A stretch of 64,000 nucleotides of DNA, from the NCBI RefSeq assembly GCF_058153355.1, contig NZ_CM177019.1; one strand, written 5' to 3'. Made by a program: the position numbers and the translations under genes. How positions within the stretch are numbered: position 1 is the stretch's first letter; every line of letters starts with the position of its first letter. This document shows, piece by piece, positions 2,368 to 21,296 of this stretch. The notes beneath the pieces are model-generated. The model did not search any database. It saw only the letters and a program-made list of their open reading frames with translations, and was not told the DNA's origin.

Positions 2368-3615
2368 ATGGTTATTTATCAAGGTGGTAAGATAATATCT
2401 GAAGATGATTTTTATTCTCATCTTTATTCGTTATGTCAGTTGGATAATGTAGGGGTTCTTTTAGGCGCGGGAGCATCGGTCGGATGTGGCGGCCAAACTA
2501 TGAAGCAGGTATGGCAGTTTTTTAAATATGAACATCCTGATCTATTGAATTTGTTACTAGAAAAATACTTATTGGTTGACAAAACTGAATCTGAACAAGA
2601 TATAGTTAATGTTGAGCTTCTAATTGATGAAGTAACTAAATTCTTGTCTGTGGCCAAAACAAGACGTAATGAAGACGAACAAAAAGAAATTAGTTTAATA
2701 TTAAGTGCTTTGTATAAACAAGTAACAAAGGCTGCATTGTTAACTGGAGAAGAGTTTGGTTGTAAAAATCAAGGGAAGAAAAAACAGTTTAAGTCTCATA
2801 AAGAATTAATTTCAAAGTTGATTTCAAATAGGCAGCCGGGACAATCGGCTCCGGCACTTTTTACTACCAACTATGATTTGGCATTAGAGTGGGCAGCTGA
2901 AGATTTAGGAATTCAGCTATTTAATGGTTTTTCAGGATTGCATACAAGACAATTTTATCCTCAAAATTTTGATTTGGCATTTAGAAATGTCAATGCAAAA
3001 GGGGAGGCTAGATTTGGTCATTATCACGCTTATCTATATAAATTGCATGGCTCTCTTACATGGTATCAGGATGATTTTTTAATAGTTAATGAGATAAGTG
3101 CATCTCAGGCATATGATAATTACATTAAAAATATTATTAATGGTGACGGTTTTTACTATGGTCAACATTTAATTTATCCGGGGGCTAATAAATATAGCCA
3201 TACAATTGGTTTTGTTTACGGTGAAATGTTTAGACGTTTTGGCGAGTTTTTGTCAAAACCTCAAACCGCTTTGTTTATTAATGGGTTTGGGTTTGGTGAT
3301 TATCATATAAACAGAATTGTTTTTGGTGCTTTGTTAAATCCGTCATTTCATGTTGTTATTTATTACCCTGATCTGGAGAATGCTTTAGATAAAGTTAGTA
3401 GAGGCGTTGCTTCTGAAGGTGAAAAGGCAATTGATGCTTTAAAAAATATGCAATTCAATCAAGTGACTATCGTGGGTGGGGGGGCAGATGCTTACTTTGA
3501 TAGTTTTGTGAAACATCTTCCTTATCCGGTGTTGTTCCCAAGAGAAAATACTGTTGATGACTTGGTTGAAGCTATTTCTAAATTGTCTAAAGGGGAAGGG
3601 AATGTCGCATTTTAA
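2368..3615 (+). CDS. SIR2-family (sirtuin-like, putative NAD+-consuming) protein, candidate defense effector
   Basis: 415 aa, AT-rich gene. Gly-rich dinucleotide-binding-like motif GAGASVGCGG (nt 2464-2493), TTNYD motif (nt 2863-2877), LHGS with candidate catalytic His (nt 3046-3048), matching SIR2_2-type signatures from memory. SD-like aagggataatt upstream. Confidence 0.7.
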   Translation: MVIYQGGKIISEDDFYSHLYSLCQLDNVGVLLGAGASVGCGGQTMKQVWQFFKYEHPDLLNLLLEKYLLVDKTESEQDIVNVELLIDEVTKFLSVAKTRRNEDEQKEISLILSALYKQVTKAALLTGEEFGCKNQGKKKQFKSHKELISKLISNRQPGQSAPALFTTNYDLALEWAAEDLGIQLFNGFSGLHTRQFYPQNFDLAFRNVNAKGEARFGHYHAYLYKLHGSLTWYQDDFLIVNEISASQAYDNYIKNIINGDGFYYGQHLIYPGANKYSHTIGFVYGEMFRRFGEFLSKPQTALFINGFGFGDYHINRIVFGALLNPSFHVVIYYPDLENALDKVSRGVASEGEKAIDALKNMQFNQVTIVGGGADAYFDSFVKHLPYPVLFPRENTVDDLVEAISKLSKGEGNVAF

Positions 3616-5422
3616 ACTATCTGAATTATCTGCTATTGGGTATGTCGTTGGTCTGGAGGGCGAAAAAATAAGGATAAATCTTCATGAAGGATTGCAAGGT
3701 AGGCTCGCCTCTCATAGGGATGGTGTTAGTTCTGTTACTCAGCCTGGAGATTTGATCGGTTTTGATGCCGGAAATATTCTGGTTGTGGCTCGAGTTACAG
3801 ATATGGCATTTGTCGAGGCTGATAAAGCACATAAGGCAAAAATAGGTACATCAGATATAGCAGATATGCCGTTAAGGCAAATAATAGCCTATGCAATAGG
3901 TTTTATTAGACGAGATATAGATGGATGTGTGTTTGTTTCGGAAGACTGGAGGTTACCTGCTCTGGGAGCATCCGCTGTCCCGTTAACATCTGATTTTTTA
4001 AATATCGTATATAGTATTGATAAAAATGATCTGGATAAAGCAATTGAGTTAGGAATAGATTCGAGGACTAAATCAGTTAAAATTTTAGCTAGCATTGATA
4101 AATTACTAACCAGGCATATGGCTGTTTTGGGCAGTACTGGATATGGTAAATCTAATTTTAATGCTTTACTTACACGCCGCATTTCAGAACAGTACCCTAA
4201 TGCAAGAATAGTAATTTTTGATATTAATGGCGAGTATTCTCAGGCTTTTGAAGGTGTTGCTAATGTTAAACATACTATTTTAGGTGAGTTACCAAAAGGA
4301 GAGTTTCCAAAACCACCTCTACAGAAAGGAGATATATTTTCTGAGAATGAACATTACTACTATAGAAAAATACCTTATCAAGCATTGGGATTTGCTGGGT
4401 TGATAAAATTACTACGCCCTAGTGATAAGACACAATTACCTGCATTAAGAAATGCGCTTAATGCTATAAATAGTGTTCATTTTTCCGATGATTCATTCTT
4501 TCTTAAGGATGAAGTAGGGGGCGTATTTAATATTTTTGATGATTGTAGAGATGAAGGGCAAGAGCTTTTATCTGCGTGGTTGAGTTTCTTAAGAAGAGGG
4601 ATGCTGTGTAAGGCAAATAAATGGCCGCCGTTTAAAAGTATTGCTAACTTGGTTGCGGAGTTTGGTTGCGTGGCGGCGGATTCGCGAAAAGCTGGATCTA
4701 GTAAACGAGATGCTTTTAGCTATGGTAATGTTCTGCCATTGATTAAGATAATTCAACAGTTATCAGAGGATTCTAGATTCAAGTATGTTGTTGATTTAAA
4801 TGGAGGTGGTGAATTATTAAGTGATGGCAAACATTGGGAATTAGCTATGAGACAGGAAGTTGATTATTTCTTTGGTAAAGAAAAGGGAGAGGAGAATGAC
4901 TGGAATATTCATATTGTTAATTTTAAGCATCTTTCACAAGATCATGCTCCAATGCTGTTAAGTGCATTATTAGAAATGTTTGCTGAAGTTCTCTTTCTTA
5001 GGGGGCAAAACAAAGCTTTTCCAACCGTGTTACTTCTTGAAGAGGCGCACCACTATTTAAGAGATCCTTATTCTGAAGTTGATGCACAAATTAAAGCTTA
5101 TGAAAGACTTGCTAAAGAAGGGCGTAAATTTAAATGTTCACTTATTGTGAGCACACAACGACCATCAGAGCTTTCATCAACAGTATTAGCAATGTGTGCA
5201 AATTGGTTTTCGTTGCGCCTGACAAATGAGCGTGATTTGCAGACTTTACGGTATGCGATGGAAAGTGGAAATGAGTTAATGATTCGGCAGATTTCTGGGC
5301 TTCCAAGAGGAGATGCAATAGCGTTTGGTGCTGCTTTTAATATACCCGTAAGAATTTCAATTCACCCTGCTGTACCCGGTCCGAGATCGTCTGACGCAAG
5401 TTATTCTCAAGAATGGCGATAA
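3602..5422 (+). CDS. HerA/FtsK-like P-loop ATPase, partner of the SIR2 protein
   Basis: About 606 aa from the ATG at 3602 (SD aggggaaggg just upstream; the track ORF starts at 3554). Walker A GSTGYGKS (nt 4130-4153), Walker B-like VLLLEEAHHY (about nt 5029-5058), STQRPSEL motif typical of HerA/VirB4-class ATPases. Start overlaps the SIR2 stop by 14 nt. Confidence 0.7.
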   Translation: MSHFKLSELSAIGYVVGLEGEKIRINLHEGLQGRLASHRDGVSSVTQPGDLIGFDAGNILVVARVTDMAFVEADKAHKAKIGTSDIADMPLRQIIAYAIGFIRRDIDGCVFVSEDWRLPALGASAVPLTSDFLNIVYSIDKNDLDKAIELGIDSRTKSVKILASIDKLLTRHMAVLGSTGYGKSNFNALLTRRISEQYPNARIVIFDINGEYSQAFEGVANVKHTILGELPKGEFPKPPLQKGDIFSENEHYYYRKIPYQALGFAGLIKLLRPSDKTQLPALRNALNAINSVHFSDDSFFLKDEVGGVFNIFDDCRDEGQELLSAWLSFLRRGMLCKANKWPPFKSIANLVAEFGCVAADSRKAGSSKRDAFSYGNVLPLIKIIQQLSEDSRFKYVVDLNGGGELLSDGKHWELAMRQEVDYFFGKEKGEENDWNIHIVNFKHLSQDHAPMLLSALLEMFAEVLFLRGQNKAFPTVLLLEEAHHYLRDPYSEVDAQIKAYERLAKEGRKFKCSLIVSTQRPSELSSTVLAMCANWFSLRLTNERDLQTLRYAMESGNELMIRQISGLPRGDAIAFGAAFNIPVRISIHPAVPGPRSSDASYSQEWR

Positions 5423-17437: not shown

Positions 17438-19648
17438 ATGAGCACAAAATTCAGAACCGTTATCACCACTGCCGGTGCAGCAAAGCTGGCAGCGGCAACC
17501 GCGCCGGGAGGGCGGAAGGTCAACATTACCACGATGGCCGTCGGGGATGGCGGTGGTAAATTGCCTGTCCCGGATGCCGGACAGACCGGGCTTATCCACG
17601 AAGTCTGGCGACATGCGCTGAACAAAATCAGCCAGGACAAACGAAACAGTAATTATATTATCGCAGAGCTGGTTATTCCGCCGGAGGTGGGCGGTTTCTG
17701 GATGCGTGAGCTTGGCCTGTACGATGATGCGGGAACGTTAATTGCCGTGGCGAACATGGCCGAAAGTTATAAGCCTGCCCTTGCCGAAGGCTCAGGGCGT
17801 TCGCAGACCTGCCGTATGGTCATCATCGTCAGCAGTGTGGCCTCAGTGGAGCTGACCATTGACACCACAACGGTGATGGCAACGCAGGATTATGTTGATG
17901 ACAAAATTGCAGAGCACGAACAGTCACGACGTCACCCGGACGCCTCGCTGACCGCAAAAGGTTTTACTCAGTTAAGCAGCGCGACCAACAGCACGTCTGA
18001 AACACTGGCCGCAACGCCGAAAGCGGTAAAGGCCGCCTATGACCTTGCTAACGGGAAATATACCGCACAGGACGCCACCACAGCGCGAAAAGGGCTTGTC
18101 CAGCTCAGTAGCGCCACCAATAGCGATTCTGAAACGCTCGCCGCAACACCAAAAGCGGTAAAAGCAGCGTATGACCTTGCTAACGGGAAATATACCGCAC
18201 AGGACGCCACCACAGCGCGAAAAGGCCTTGTCCAGCTCAGTAGCGCCACCAACAGTGATTCTGAAACGCTTGCAGCAACGCCAAAGGCGGTAAAGGCAGC
18301 ATATGACCTTGCTAACGGGAAATACACTGCACAGGACGCCACCACAGCGCGAAAAGGTCTTGTCCAGCTCAGTAGCGTCACCAACAGTGATTCTGAAACC
18401 CTCGCGGCAACGCCAAAAGCAGTGAAGTCTGCCTATGACAATGCTGAAAAACGTCTTCAGAAAGATCAGAACGGTGCGGATATTCCGGGAAAGGATACCT
18501 TCACGAAAAATATCGGTGCCTGTCGTGCTTATAGCGGCGCTTTGAGCACTGAAGCCGGAAACTGGACAACCGCGCAGTTTATTGACTGGCTAGAGTCTCA
18601 GGGAGCCTTTAATCATCCCTACTGGATGTGCAAGTGTTCCTGGTCATACGGTAATAACAAAATTATTACCGATACTGACTGTGGGACGATTCATCTTGCA
18701 GGTTGCGTGATTGAGGTTATGGGTGTTAAAGCAGCAATGACCATTCGTGTGACCACTCCGAGTACATCAAGCAGTGGTGGTACCACCAGTGCGCAATTCA
18801 CGTATATCAATCACGGAGCTGATTATGCGCCGGGCTGGCGACGCGACTACAATACGAAAAATAAGCAACCGGCTTTTGCATTAGGGAAAACAGGAAATAC
18901 GGTTGCAAATAATAAAGCAGTAGGATGGAACTGGGACAGTGGTGCTTATTGTGCACAGGATGGCGGAGCATCAAAAATGGTGCTGCATTTTTACACGGGT
19001 GAGGGAAGTTGTCCGGCAATGCAGTTTCTTGTGGATTATAAAAACAGGGGGATTTTTTACAGGTCGGCACGTGATGGGTATGGATTTGAGGCTGACTGGT
19101 CAGAGTTTTATACCACATCACGAAAGCCAACACCTGCGGATATTCTTGCTCTGGCATTATCAGGCGGAAGCATGTCAGGCAGCATAAAATTTATCAATGA
19201 TGCCTTCCTGATTTGGGAAAGAAACACTGACTGGGCGAAAATTGGATTTAAAAATGATTCAGATGCTGATTCTGACTCATTCATGTGGTTTGAAACTGGT
19301 GATAATGGCAATGAATATTTTAAATGGCGCATCAGGTCTGGCAGCACAACAAAAGATCTGATGACGCTTAAGTCTGATGCACTACGGGTTACCGGGCAGG
19401 TGATACCATCAAATTTCAGCAATTTTGACTCCCGCTATGTCAGGGATCTCCGGCTTGGTGGTGCCGCCACATACAAACCTGCGAACAATGGCATGACATG
19501 GACACATCAGGCACCGTCCGGGTGTGTATATACCGGCATTATTGTTCAGGATACCGGCTCAAACTCTGCCGATAACATTGGTGGCGTATATTACAGACCG
19601 GTGCAGAAATACATTAACGGGACATGGTACAACGTGGCGCAGGTATAA
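17438..19648 (+). CDS. H: Tail fiber protein gpH, with internal tandem repeats and a lower-GC distal domain
   Basis: 736 aa; conserved N-terminus, about four copies of a ~44-aa repeat, then an AT-richer C-terminal receptor-binding region. Confidence 0.85.
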   Translation: MSTKFRTVITTAGAAKLAAATAPGGRKVNITTMAVGDGGGKLPVPDAGQTGLIHEVWRHALNKISQDKRNSNYIIAELVIPPEVGGFWMRELGLYDDAGTLIAVANMAESYKPALAEGSGRSQTCRMVIIVSSVASVELTIDTTTVMATQDYVDDKIAEHEQSRRHPDASLTAKGFTQLSSATNSTSETLAATPKAVKAAYDLANGKYTAQDATTARKGLVQLSSATNSDSETLAATPKAVKAAYDLANGKYTAQDATTARKGLVQLSSATNSDSETLAATPKAVKAAYDLANGKYTAQDATTARKGLVQLSSVTNSDSETLAATPKAVKSAYDNAEKRLQKDQNGADIPGKDTFTKNIGACRAYSGALSTEAGNWTTAQFIDWLESQGAFNHPYWMCKCSWSYGNNKIITDTDCGTIHLAGCVIEVMGVKAAMTIRVTTPSTSSSGGTTSAQFTYINHGADYAPGWRRDYNTKNKQPAFALGKTGNTVANNKAVGWNWDSGAYCAQDGGASKMVLHFYTGEGSCPAMQFLVDYKNRGIFYRSARDGYGFEADWSEFYTTSRKPTPADILALALSGGSMSGSIKFINDAFLIWERNTDWAKIGFKNDSDADSDSFMWFETGDNGNEYFKWRIRSGSTTKDLMTLKSDALRVTGQVIPSNFSNFDSRYVRDLRLGGAATYKPANNGMTWTHQAPSGCVYTGIIVQDTGSNSADNIGGVYYRPVQKYINGTWYNVAQV
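17950..18440 (+). repeat. In-frame tandem repeats (~132 bp x ~3.8) inside tail fiber gene H
   Basis: Repeated peptide GLVQLSSATNSxSETLAATPKAVKAAYDLANGKYTAQDATTARK; copies differ at synonymous sites, so the array is not a very recent duplication. Confidence 0.8.
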
Positions 19649-19651
19649 TTT

Positions 19652-20179
19652 ATGCAGCATTTGATAAATATAACGGCAGGTAATCCAAAAACGGTTGAAC
19701 AATATCAATTGACAAAGGACTTTGATGTTGTCTGGTTTTTTTCAGAAGATGGTAAGAACTGGTACGAAGAACAAAAGTATTTTGCTGATGACACGATAAA
19801 AATAGCGTACGACAAAGATAATATCATCCGCTATGTGGAAAAGGATGTGACAGCTATCAGACCGGATGGATTAAGTGTGGTTGAAGTGGCTGATATTACT
19901 GCTAATCGACGGGCGGACATTTCAGGGGGCTGGATGTTTAAGGACGGCAAAGTGATTAAACGCATTTATACGGCAGAGGAATTGCAGAAGCAGACAGAAA
20001 ATCGGAAAGCCAGACTTCTTGCAGATGCTGAATCCGTGATTTTGCCGCTGGAGCGCGCTGTCAGGCTGAATATGGCAACAGATGAGGAGCGTAGCCGACT
20101 GGAAGCATGGGAACGCTACAGTGTTCTGGTCAGCCGTGTGGATCCTGCAAATCCTGAATGGCCGGAAATGCCGCAATAA
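19652..20179 (+). CDS. G: Tail fiber assembly chaperone gpG
   Basis: 175 aa, AT-rich like the H distal domain; P2 position. Confidence 0.75.
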
Positions 20180-20459
20180 GTGATATGATCTCTTGTGTTA
20201 GTTAACATAGCTATAGTACAGAGTAAGGCCTAATCTGACAGTCCGCTCTGTGCTAGGAGCGGACATTATCAACATCATGCTATGTTAATGTATAAAGTGA
20301 AGATAAATTGATATAATAAGGCCACCATGAATATTTCAGAACCTTGTCAAAAGGTTTGCACATACTCTAGTCTTGCAATGTGTAGTTGATAGTTCCACTG
20401 AGGAGGTTCTTCGACATTCTTTATAAAAATGTACATTTTCATCAATAATAAGAGGTAAA

Positions 20460-20501
20460 ATGGCTTTAATAGTTTTTTGTGGATGTTATTTCTACTCATA
20501 A
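20460..20501 (+). CDS. 13-codon mini-ORF (MALIVFCGCYFYS) with strong SD, candidate leader peptide or small hydrophobic protein
   Basis: taagaggtaaa-ATG context; ends 67 nt upstream of the HEPN-like ORF. Very short, so speculative. Confidence 0.25.
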   Translation: MALIVFCGCYFYS

Positions 20502-20568
20502 ATTTTGAGATAAGTATTGAGTTGAGATAAAGTTAAACTCGTTAAATTCACTTTTAAAAGGATAAAGC

Positions 20569-21096
20569 ATGGACTGGAAAGATCTTGCATCAACCGCTGT
20601 GTATACAGGTATGACTGATGAAAATGAAAGCATATGGGAACGTGTTGATGGGGTTGACGTTGCCTTCATAGGTGCCTTTCTTACTGCGCACTTGAGCCTT
20701 GAAAAGTATATTACTGATTATCTTGGATTAAGATATCCTTCGTTAGCTTGGGGTGATGCAAAACTCACATTTTCACAAAAAATAGCTTTAATACAACATG
20801 AGCCTGCAAAATCCCCTTATGATGAAATATATTTAAGAATAAAAGACTTTAACAGCATAAGAAATAAAATCAGTCATCAATTGAATTATCAGATTACGGA
20901 TAAAGAAAAAAGTAAGTTTGTGGACTTCTACATGAAGATTACTAAAGCCAGTAAAACTAAACCAAATATTGATATTGATAACATGGCAGATTTGTTGGAT
21001 TTTTTCGTATCGATGACAAAATCCTATTTTGCTAGTGCTATTTCTTATTATCACTATAATAAAAAGGTTGCAGGTAAAAGTAATAAAATTGATTAA
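20569..21096 (+). CDS. Hypothetical protein with HEPN-like Rx4H motif; candidate single-gene anti-phage or abortive-infection cargo at the Z/fun hotspot
   Basis: 175 aa, strongly AT-rich, between G and FI. R98-N-K-I-S-H103 (nt 20860-20877) fits the Rx4-6H motif of HEPN RNase domains. SD aaaaggataaagc-ATG. Confidence 0.5.
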   Translation: MDWKDLASTAVYTGMTDENESIWERVDGVDVAFIGAFLTAHLSLEKYITDYLGLRYPSLAWGDAKLTFSQKIALIQHEPAKSPYDEIYLRIKDFNSIRNKISHQLNYQITDKEKSKFVDFYMKITKASKTKPNIDIDNMADLLDFFVSMTKSYFASAISYYHYNKKVAGKSNKID

Positions 21097-21271
21097 TAAA
21101 ACTGGACTTAGGGATAATTAATATATAGACGTTCTATCATTTTTAGAGTGTGCGGCAGCTCCATACATTCATGCGGATGTCAGCACCTCGCTCAAAGCAG
21201 ACAGTCAGATTTGATAGCGTTTGGACTATGTAAATAGTCAGTTGGAAAATGAGTGAGTACAAATCAGGACA

Positions 21272-21296
21272 GGCGGGCGAATTGCCCGCCTTTTCT
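21272..21296 (+). terminator. Rho-independent terminator at the end of the Z/fun cargo region
   Basis: ggcgggc-gaatt-gcccgcc hairpin followed by ttttctttat. Confidence 0.5.

Follow-up and report, generated by a model that had tools for sequence, protein, structure and literature searches.

Since the early 1990s it has been textbook knowledge that the H and G genes of phage P2 form mosaics with the S and U genes of Mu and P1. In the P2-like phage P88, swapping the 31-aa HR2 segment near the tip of the H protein alters host range (PMC5285337), and LPS is a ligand of Mu fibres (PMC11915804; PMC11821841). According to the section of PMC9608196 that cites North et al. 2019, the tail fibre assembly proteins (Tfa) Mu U and P2 G are known chaperones of fibre folding, and Tfa binds the fibre through a variable N-terminal domain and trimerises it through a conserved C-terminal domain. 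It was in lambda Stf that the PF03406 ('Pf2') domain was first recognised, and the repetitive domain of related prophage fibres varies in length between alleles; little is known of the structural role of PF03406 (PMC3368898), PMC8078820 gives no more than a contact-based model of it, and no solved structure of the PF03406 repeat region itself was found. The R18C paper is silent on tail fibres.

The locus analysed here lies in a window of 64,000 nucleotides (the whole stretch of DNA under study). The account that best explains it, held as a whole with high confidence and contradicted by no finding, makes the region the host-recognition module H-G of an intact E. coli prophage of the P2 type (Peduovirus). 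The genes and domains that delimit the module are as follows.

17438..19648, + strand: gene H, tail fibre protein, 736 aa (ORF; WP_000104730.1 in RefSeq, strain PEC395)
17438..17890, + strand: putative N-terminal baseplate-attachment domain of H, aa 1-151 (PF12571 Phage_tail_fib, E 1.5e-58)
19652..20179, + strand: gene G, tail fibre assembly protein (Tfa), 175 aa (ORF; PF02413 Caudo_TAP, E 1.3e-33; phrog_136)
~19652-19951, + strand: N-terminal domain of G
~19952-20179, + strand: C-terminal domain of G

Gene identity and prophage context

ORF order and the RefSeq annotation of the identical PEC395 locus show a complete P2-like prophage in which H is part of the V-W-J-I-H-G operon, after the V-W-J-I baseplate genes and before the Tfa gene, in an order syntenic with P2, fiAA91-ss and NC_070905. 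By ORF positions, G starts 4 nt past the stop codon of H. The Pfam matches of H are PF12571, four stretches of PF03406, and gp37_C, and no NCBIfam model was returned for H, for G or for the cargo-slot gene that follows G. Over H-G, nucleotide identity is 98.2% to Peduovirus P2 NC_070905 and 96.5% to fiAA91-ss. The N-terminal domain of H has 94-100% identity to P2 H, and is 98-100% identical across 80 IMG/VR loci with many differing distal ends.

Many P2-like prophages of E. coli are defective, and K-12 retains only ogrK-type remnants; by that precedent the prophage could be cryptic, with H and G as decaying, functionless remnants. Such a state is very improbable here, as every P2 gene from A to ogr, late and early, is present as an intact ORF, and neither H nor G is truncated, both being 96-98% identical to their counterparts in isolated phages and under purifying selection. 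The close match (96-98% identity) of H to its counterparts in isolated phages suggests that H assembles as a trimer on the baseplate and functions in adsorption.

Two further features were observed in passing. One is a SIR2-HerA defence pair; the other, at 20569-21096 in the Z/fun slot (the cargo slot after G), is an uncharacterised gene with a HEPN motif. The putative HEPN assignment of this gene comes from a single feature, an invariant Rx4H motif; its AlphaFold2 model is weak (pLDDT 62), and a Foldseek search of the PDB with that weak model as the query gave no significant match (best E 1.7).

An array of 44-residue units in H

The repetitive stretch of H consists of the following units.

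17960..18442, + strand: array of 132-nt (44-aa) PF03406 units, in register (Tandem Repeats Finder)
17960-18091, + strand: unit A
18092-18223, + strand: unit B
18224-18355, + strand: unit C
18356-18442, + strand: unit D (partial, 29 aa)

Tandem Repeats Finder delimits a repeat at 17978-18439 with a period of 132 nt, 3.5 copies, 89% matches and a score of 714. In frame, three full 44-aa units (aa 175-218, 219-262 and 263-306) are followed by a partial fourth (aa 307-335) that has 29 conserved residues and is divergent beyond them, and the four stretches of H matched by PF03406 have an E value of 4.3e-80. The initial annotation had described about 3.8 copies of a 44-aa repeat; the array is there, but the count is nearer 3.65. 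The same annotation was correct that H has 736 aa compared to 669 aa in P2, with four AATPKAV motifs here and two in P2, and that the copies have diverged synonymously: the second and third units are separated by 11 synonymous changes and no others in 132 nt (P ~2e-7 under random placement). Across the units, pS ranges from 0.33 to 0.59 and pN from 0 to 0.16; with pN/pS far below 1, the units are under strong purifying selection, and units B and C are old paralogues rather than fresh products of slippage. An antisense ORF of 115 aa (18037-18384) was rejected as a gene; it lies wholly within the array, and it exists because the repeat leaves the reverse frame nearly stop-free.

Polymorphism in unit number is observed directly: copy number differs by whole in-frame units between H alleles that are otherwise near-identical. 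The arrangement is A-C-D in fiAA91-ss, A-B-C-D in the window and in NC_070905, A-B-B-C-D in strain CE516 (in which the two B units are 100% identical over 87 nt), and A-D' in P2; E. coli has H proteins of 692, 736 and 780 aa. Assemblers are known to stumble over tandem repeats of 132 nt, and the existence of 3-unit and 5-unit alleles might be taken to mean that the four-unit array is itself an artefact of repeats collapsed or expanded in short-read assembly, a concern that accompanied the original description of the array. The probability of this is negligible, and the possibility was rejected: an identical 2742-nt H-G span with four units is found in 24 complete E. coli genomes and in the phage record NC_070905 (a 3-unit span of 2610 nt is found in 5 complete E. 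coli genomes); the protein cluster P0102 (736 aa; listed with 100% BLASTP identity and coverage) occurs on 180 contigs; the array is just 483 nt long and its four units can be told apart at 77-92% nucleotide identity; and the 3-unit and 5-unit alleles differ by defined units (B lost or B duplicated), as real alleles would.

With the four-unit array accepted as genuine, whole units would be gained or lost through unequal recombination, giving alleles with 2, 3, 4 or 5 units, because the unit of 132 nt preserves the reading frame and the DNA identity between units is 77-92%. Whether this variation matters to the phage can be approached from the distribution of alleles. The reading given slightly better than even weight is that unit number is functionally neutral, the array drifting by recombination and a fibre of 2-5 units being equally serviceable for adsorption whatever its length. 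Versions of a near-identical H with 3, 4 and 5 units coexist in E. coli; an isolated phage with a complete genome, fiAA91-ss, has 3 units, so that this number appears sufficient; and the literature searched records no phenotype tied to unit number. Against neutrality stand the purifying selection on the units, the age of the B and C paralogues, and a correlation among IMG/VR loci between unit number and distal type (2 units in 14/14 loci of the P2-mid type and 4 units in 33/34 of the S'-type), which shared ancestry could explain equally well. The opposite reading, taken as a whole, is unlikely: the number of 44-aa shaft units would be an adaptively tuned, fast-changing length adjuster of the contingency type, fibre reach would be fitted to the distal module in use and to how deep the host O-antigen or capsule is, and synonymous divergence would be maintained so that recombination still adds and removes units, though less often. 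The 3-, 4- and 5-unit alleles, the one fresh B-B duplication, the tracking of distal type and a pN/pS far below 1 are compatible with such an adjuster.

Distal modules of H and linkage of the tip to G

Beyond the array, H is divided into three parts.

18437..19153, + strand: domain of the Mu S' type (gp52, G(-) fibre), aa 334-572 (phmmer match to PDB 8JU3 residues 177-416, domain E 2e-117)
19154..19405, + strand: segment of the Mu S (gp49) / P2 H type, 'NTDWAKIGFKND...TTKDLMTLK', aa 573-656 (5YVQ residues 184-267, domain E 2e-30)
19388..19648, + strand: distal tip of H, last 86 aa; not the P2 allele (47.7% identity to the P2 tip)

The boundaries of this mosaic were mapped by PDB matches, tblastn, and pairwise maps against P2, 12W, 12474II and Mu. 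Residues 334-571 of H have ~80% identity in a HMMER alignment to Mu S' in 8JU3, the G(-) fibre (Mori et al. 2024, Virology 593:110017); by tblastn, the domain has 73% identity to Mu Sv', 74% to P7 Sv and 83.5% to the vB_EcoM-12474 phages. A solved homologue of the S'-type domain is thus available; for trimeric fibres, models built from the monomer are unreliable. In the next segment, 19221-19384 has 81.7% nucleotide identity to P2 H, and Pfam Gp34_trimer scores 26.3 bits on aa 573-656, just under its cut-off of 27 bits. The tip ends in the conserved residues INGTWYNVAQV. The distal half had been described in advance as a horizontally exchanged mosaic, and it is one, composed of the S'-type domain, the segment of the Mu S / P2 H type and a distinct tip allele; compared to canonical P2 H it is not identical, with identity falling to 22-50% in blocks of 50 columns through the divergent region and to 47.7% in the last 86 aa. 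Exchange is also evident elsewhere: at least 12 length classes of H share one N-terminus in IMG/VR, the block at 19389-20252 has 93.5% nucleotide identity to phage 12W, whose H otherwise differs, and vB_EcoM-12474II pairs an S'-type domain (83%) with a P2-type G (76%). The distal part comprises at least two independently exchanged modules rather than one, and the S'-type domain assorts independently of the tip and G.

The GC content is 0.56 in gene I and the N-terminus of H, 0.54 in the repeats, 0.47 at 18437-19153, 0.42 at 19154-19405, 0.49 in the tip and 0.45 in G. The shift towards AT that was initially reported from ~18450 through the end of G is therefore present after the array. Canonical P2 has a GC content of 0.56 in the N-terminal part of H, 0.47 in the remainder of H and 0.44 in G, and that of Mu Sv, Sv', U and U' is 0.43-0.47; since canonical P2 and Mu S/U have the same drop, the composition is a trait of the whole cassette family rather than of this allele, and AT-richness does not mark the present H-G allele as a recent import.

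G is an allele of P2 G rather than a foreign chaperone, with an identity to P2 G of 68% over the N-terminal 100 aa and 81% over the C-terminal 75 aa. A chaperone matched to its fibre had been proposed, and linkage of the tip to G is what is observed: the tip allele and the G allele are concordant in 66/66 IMG/VR loci (37 + 29 concordant and 0 discordant, in loci that are not phylogenetically independent), and the tip is at least 89.5% identical in exactly those GenBank phages that carry the present G allele.

From homologues and the literature, the working of the module can be outlined as follows. H would be a trimeric tail fibre anchored to the baseplate by its conserved aa 1-151; and the 44-aa PF03406 units would form a modular stretch of the shaft, their number affecting its length. 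The distal half is built of exchangeable modules common to Mu, P1/P7 and other phages. By homology to Mu U and P2 G, G may act as a fibre-folding chaperone, in which the variable N-terminal domain recognizes the tip and the conserved helical C-terminal domain drives trimerisation. Recognition of the tip by the N-terminal domain would cause the tip and G to be inherited as one cassette. Binding of the LPS core and control of host range may both fall to the distal modules, perhaps with G remaining bound to them; setting host range is the accepted role of H-G modules and, by homology and the literature, probably that of this one.

Within that outline, specificity might reside mainly in the cassette of tip and G (the last ~86 aa of H and the N-terminal domain of G), the S'-type domain being a mere shaft or spacer. 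This is a tenable reading given somewhat less than even weight. It agrees with the change in host range of P88 upon the HR2 swap near the tip (PMC5285337), with the statement in the section of PMC9608196 citing North et al. 2019 that Tfa binds the distal tip, remains on the Mu virion and aids receptor recognition, with the strict co-segregation of tip and G in the 66 IMG/VR loci, and with the internal position of the S'-type domain, ~165 aa ahead of the C-terminus of H. However, the 240-aa S'-type block is kept at 73-83% identity across Mu S', P7 Sv and P2-like phages, and the S'-type domain is most of the variable, orientation-specific part of Mu S'; moreover, E. coli DSM 12242 was the only strain on which vB_EcoM-12474V, with its S'-type domain and another tip, would plate, the K-12 strains W3110, JM109 and DH5alpha giving no plating (PMC6834657).

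With host range set by the distal modules of H, the H-G module would decide which strains are attacked by the prophage or by an engineered P2-type phage or tailocin derived from it. The module map consists of an anchor, 2-5 shaft units, an S'-type domain, an S-type segment, and the tip plus G as one unit. Such a map of exchangeable pieces is useful for host-range engineering, and the strict linkage of the tip to G indicates that these two should be moved jointly. The exact H protein and allele are already present in RefSeq and in sequenced phages, and their biology is known; beyond the module map, the H-G locus brings no new biology.

Comparison with Mu, lambda and P2-type fibres

An invertible segment of the Mu/P1 type or a shufflon was considered and ruled out. 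The best match to a gix site at the H-G locus is 15/26, the inverted repeats found there are only short and imperfect, with no long ones, and in the ORFs and RefSeq annotation there is neither an invertase gene nor a second H-G set between G and FI. Although it employs an S'-type module, the locus is no invertible switch.

Compared to Mu S' (gp52) and U', aa 334-571 of H correspond to S' residues 177-416 (~80% by HMMER, 73% by tblastn), and the single PF03406 unit of Mu Sc resembles the last repeat unit of H. The differences are that ~33 residues between two 'NGADIP' motifs of S', including the gix-encoded FIQNLGLQ, are absent here, that H has an extra Mu S-type segment between its S'-type domain and its tip, and that U' is only 38% identical to G, whose C-terminal domain resembles those of U and P2 G. 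The hosts of Mu in the G(-) state are E. coli C, Shigella sonnei and Citrobacter freundii. With Mu S (gp49; PDB 5YVQ, North et al. 2019), H shares aa 573-656, corresponding to S residues 184-267 (66.7% by BLASTP over aa 571-651), and a homologous tip, and G is 67-77% identical to U (TfaMu) with the same logic of chaperone domains; in contrast, the tip is only ~37-52% identical to that of S, and S residues 268-424 have no counterpart in H. The side tail fibres lambda Stf and Rac StfR have a PF03406-family repeat of 40-odd residues, as H does, but a different N-terminal anchor (PF08400) and a siphovirus context.

P2 gpH and gpG (NC_001895) agree with the present proteins in operon position, N-terminal domain (94-100% aa identity), first repeat unit, the 'NTDWAKIGFKND' segment (~80%), the last ~17 residues of H, the GC drop in distal H and G, and a G of 175 aa with ~75% identity. 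P2 gpH differs in having 2 units rather than 4, no Mu S'-type domain, another middle region, an extra ~120 aa ahead of the tip and a tip that is 47.7% identical; P2 gpG differs in its N-terminal domain (68%). The closest described systems are fiAA91-ss (NC_022750), which has the same H/G allele at 96.5% nucleotide identity without unit B (A-C-D, 692 aa), and 'Peduovirus P2' NC_070905 / OU784750. Both carry cargo genes in the post-G slot that differ from the one here, and the latter has the same H/G allele at 98.2% nucleotide identity with 4 units and 736 aa, exactly as in the window.

The H-G locus within its prophage

The P2-type tail fibre gene H and the adjacent gene G, for the tail fibre assembly protein (Tfa), are part of a complete P2-type prophage; the gene order here is V-W-J-I-H-G, and FI-FII-E-T-U-D-ogr come next. 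The PHROGs assignments of both are consistent with the Pfam matches.

Features of H and G:
17438-19648, + strand: H, ORF of 736 aa (RefSeq WP_000104730.1)
H aa 1-151: PF12571 (Pfam E 1.5e-58)
H, four stretches: PF03406, 'phage tail fibre repeat' (Pfam E 4.3e-80)
H aa 485-577: gp37_C (Pfam)
H: Gp34_trimer (Pfam score slightly under the cut-off)
19652-20179, + strand: G, ORF of 175 aa (RefSeq WP_001164090.1)
G: PF02413 Caudo_TAP (Pfam E 1.3e-33)

The H-G query has a 100% identical match in the E. coli PEC395 chromosome, where the prophage adjoins trhP (yegQ) and the bae/mdt genes. In the window, 27779-64000 holds the end of the prophage at ogr and then the host genes trhP (yegQ), yegP, baeRS and mdtDCBA; in E. 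coli K-12 this neighbourhood retains the cryptic P2 remnant ogrK. Non-P2 genes fill two cargo slots of the prophage.

Cargo genes:
2368-3615, + strand: SIR2 family protein, 415 aa (PADLOC SIR2 model, E 3e-188)
3602-5422, + strand: HerA-type ATPase, 606 aa (PADLOC HerA model, E 6e-272)
20569-21096, + strand: Z/fun slot ORF, 175 aa, AT-rich (GC 0.33, GC3 0.27)

The first two ORFs overlap. They occupy the old/tin slot of P2, which has replication gene A on one side and portal gene Q on the other, and are a known SIR2-HerA anti-phage defence pair. The Z/fun slot of P2, between G and FI, corresponds to about 20253-21186, at whose edges similarity to all of the phages compared breaks off and resumes, and its gene differs in each of P2, fiAA91-ss, NC_070905, 12W, 12474II and CE516. 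The slot ORF has no match in Pfam below E 0.05, none in PADLOC or NCBIfam, and a sole match in PHROGs (phrog_5483, function unknown); only 23 clusters of homologues were found for it, of which the named ones are all from Enterobacterales and annotated as hypothetical or uncharacterised. It contains an invariant DFNxIRNKISH, which has the Rx4H pattern of HEPN nucleases; AlphaFold2 gave a weak (pLDDT 62), all-alpha model, and a Foldseek search of this model against the PDB returned nothing significant, with the YggD/MtlR-like 3c8g and Csm6 among the best matches. The ORF is a candidate, as yet unproven, HEPN-type abortive-infection gene. A strong, G+C-rich hairpin at 21271-21291 (+ strand; 9 pairs, 7 of them G-C, with a T run after it) is found 175 nt past the slot ORF, with FI about 100 nt further on, within the block that regains P2 similarity and upstream of the pF promoter, and is likely to terminate transcripts that read through from the V operon and the slot gene.

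Number of repeat units in H

The tandem 44-aa array described in the initial annotation is confirmed by Tandem Repeats Finder (period 132 nt, 3.5 copies, 89% matches, 17978-18439) and by the in-frame units, which begin at aa 175 (nt 17960) and comprise three full 44-aa units and a fourth conserved over 29 residues. H is indeed 736 aa long, compared to 669 aa with two motifs in P2; the H proteins of fiAA91-ss and NC_070905 have 692 aa with three motifs and 736 aa with four, respectively. The synonymous divergence claimed between copies is also present, with pS of 0.33-0.59 versus pN of 0-0.16 between units, and the 11 differences among the 132 nt of the second and third units change no amino acid (P about 2e-7). 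Every part of the initial observation is real and far beyond chance. An antisense ORF of 115 aa (18037-18384, - strand), itself repetitive, lies wholly inside the array; the array leaves one reverse frame nearly stop-free, which accounts for the ORF, and no support was found for its being a gene.

Typing of the units (A, 17960-18091; B, 18092-18223; C, 18224-18355; D, partial, 18356-18442) by nucleotide identity allowed positional homologues to be recognised across alleles.

Unit series of the array in H
fiAA91-ss: A-C-D
window and NC_070905: A-B-C-D
E. coli CE516: A-B-B-C-D
P2: A-D'

The two B units of CE516 are 100% identical to each other over their first 87 nt, which indicates a recent duplication. 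Homologues of H in E. coli have 692, 736 or 780 aa, and in complete E. coli genomes that carry the allele at full length the H-G span is 2742 nt (24 genomes) or 2610 nt (5 genomes). Thus, from the unit series, the length classes and the span counts, the array gains or loses entire units without a shift of frame, the pattern that unequal recombination between 132-nt repeats would give. The protein cluster listed with 100% BLASTP identity to, and coverage of, the 736-aa query is carried by 180 contigs, and the four-unit state of the window is the common state. Assembly artefact as the source of the four-unit count is excluded by the 24 complete genomes with the longer span, these contigs and the unit-specific alleles; the count is genuine and polymorphic across complete E. 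coli genomes. Among the IMG/VR Peduovirus loci, alleles with a P2-type middle region have two units in 14 of 14, alleles with the Mu S'-type domain have four units in 33 and five in one, and the remaining distal types have three to five.

Mosaic distal half and the tip-G cassette

The proposal that distal H is a horizontally exchanged mosaic is borne out by the nucleotide map against P2, matches to solved structures and tblastn. At the nucleotide level H is about 97% similar to P2 H up to 18162; the similarity then disappears and comes back at 19221-19384 (82%) and again from 19594 across G to 20274 (76%). Among solved structures, the Mu G(-) fibre S' (8JU3) aligns through its residues 177-416 with H aa 334-571 (domain E 2e-117, alignment identity about 80%) and Mu S (5YVQ) through residues 184-267 with H aa 573-656, while the tip, the last 86 aa, has weak similarity to each of them. 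By tblastn, the S'-type block is related to Mu Sv' (73%), P7 Sv (74%) and the vB_EcoM-12474 phages (83.5%), while L-413C, 10W and 12W share just its C-terminal third. The H of vB_EcoM-12474II, also with four units, is collinear with that of the window over aa 1-569 (92%), beyond which a different tip follows directly, partnered by a P2-type G. Mapped in this way, the distal half of H is a mosaic of three or more pieces. At least 12 length classes of H (621-816 aa) stand behind a 98-100% identical N-terminus in the IMG/VR loci, so mosaicism of this kind is the norm.

The initial annotation also noted an AT-richer composition from distal H through G and read it as typical of horizontal exchange. 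The shift is genuine: GC is about 0.56 in gene I and the H N-terminus, 0.54 in the repeats, 0.47, 0.42 and 0.49 across three distal segments of H, and 0.45 in G. It is not diagnostic of recent import, because the P2 genes (0.56 in the N-terminal part of H, 0.47 in the rest, 0.44 in G) and Mu Sc, Sv, U, U' and Sv' (0.43-0.47) are alike; low GC is common to the whole exchangeable pool of fibre and chaperone genes. Haggard-Ljungquist et al., in J Bacteriol in 1992, reportedly argued for such a shared composition when they first described horizontal traffic between P2 H/G and the fibre genes of Mu, P1 and lambda.

G alleles of GenBank phages fall into two classes, 22 records with at least 93% identity and then a drop to about 76% (P2, pro147, L-413C, HQ103, 12474II and others), and the tip of H follows that division record for record: its identity is at least 89.5% in NC_070905, fiAA91-ss, NC_070906, P22H1, P24E6b, D8, 9W-12W, P24C9, PhiR44_1/2 and P22H4, and 47-50% in phages with P2-type G. 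An independent IMG/VR sample of 80 loci was picked solely on a 98-100% identical H N-terminus; H was complete in 73 and G recognisable in 66. The claim that G is matched to its fibre was upheld there, with tip identity of at least 85% together with G identity of at least 90% in 37 loci, both below these thresholds in 29, and none discordant among the 66, which are not phylogenetically independent. The block of tip plus G (19389-20252, 93.5% nucleotide identity to phage 12W) occurs behind quite different H bodies, and tip and G form one cassette. G has 68% identity to P2 G over its first 100 residues and 81% over the rest. The linkage is consistent with the published logic of Tfa, that of a variable N-terminal domain that binds the distal end of the fibre and a conserved C-terminal helical domain that trimerises (PMC9608196, citing North et al. 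2019).

Function, host range and known systems

Domain order, unit polymorphism, module boundaries and tip-G linkage were observed directly. The PF03406 units would build up the length of the shaft, G would fold and trimerise the tip and may remain attached, and the LPS core may be bound by the S'-type domain, the tip or both. The hosts of Mu G(-) include E. coli C, Shigella sonnei and Citrobacter freundii, and it is not known to infect K-12; fiAA91-ss was reportedly propagated on S. sonnei. The N-terminal domain of H would dock on the baseplate wedge, in comparison with the N-terminus of Mu gp49, which docks on gp48 (PMC11915804). In the P2-like phage P88, a swap of the 31-aa near-tip HR2 alters host range (PMC5285337), and vB_EcoM-12474V, with an S'-type domain and another tip, plated on E. 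coli DSM 12242 and failed to plate on W3110, JM109, DH5alpha or ATCC 11303 (PMC6834657). The P88, vB_EcoM-12474V, Mu G(-) and fiAA91-ss data offer indirect hints on the host range that the initial annotation attributed to this module.

In Mu S' (AF083977), NGADIP occurs twice, closing Sc and opening Sv' on either side of the gix-encoded FIQNLGLQ. In the window (18440-18532) unit D is joined straight to the second copy, an arrangement that recombination between the two motifs would leave after loss of about 33 residues, the gix-encoded segment among them. An invertible G-segment switch was rejected despite the borrowed Mu S'-type domain: H contains no gix-like site (best match 15 of 26) and neither flanking inverted repeats nor an invertase is present at H-G, so the S'-type module is fixed rather than switchable. 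The unit series A-C-D, A-B-C-D and A-B-B-C-D, like the strict linkage of tip and G, is neat as description and adds no new biology. The locus belongs to the P2 gpH/gpG family, with every testable defining feature of that family present; this H-G allele is already annotated in RefSeq and present in sequenced phages (fiAA91-ss, NC_070905 / OU784750), and the finding as a whole is already known.
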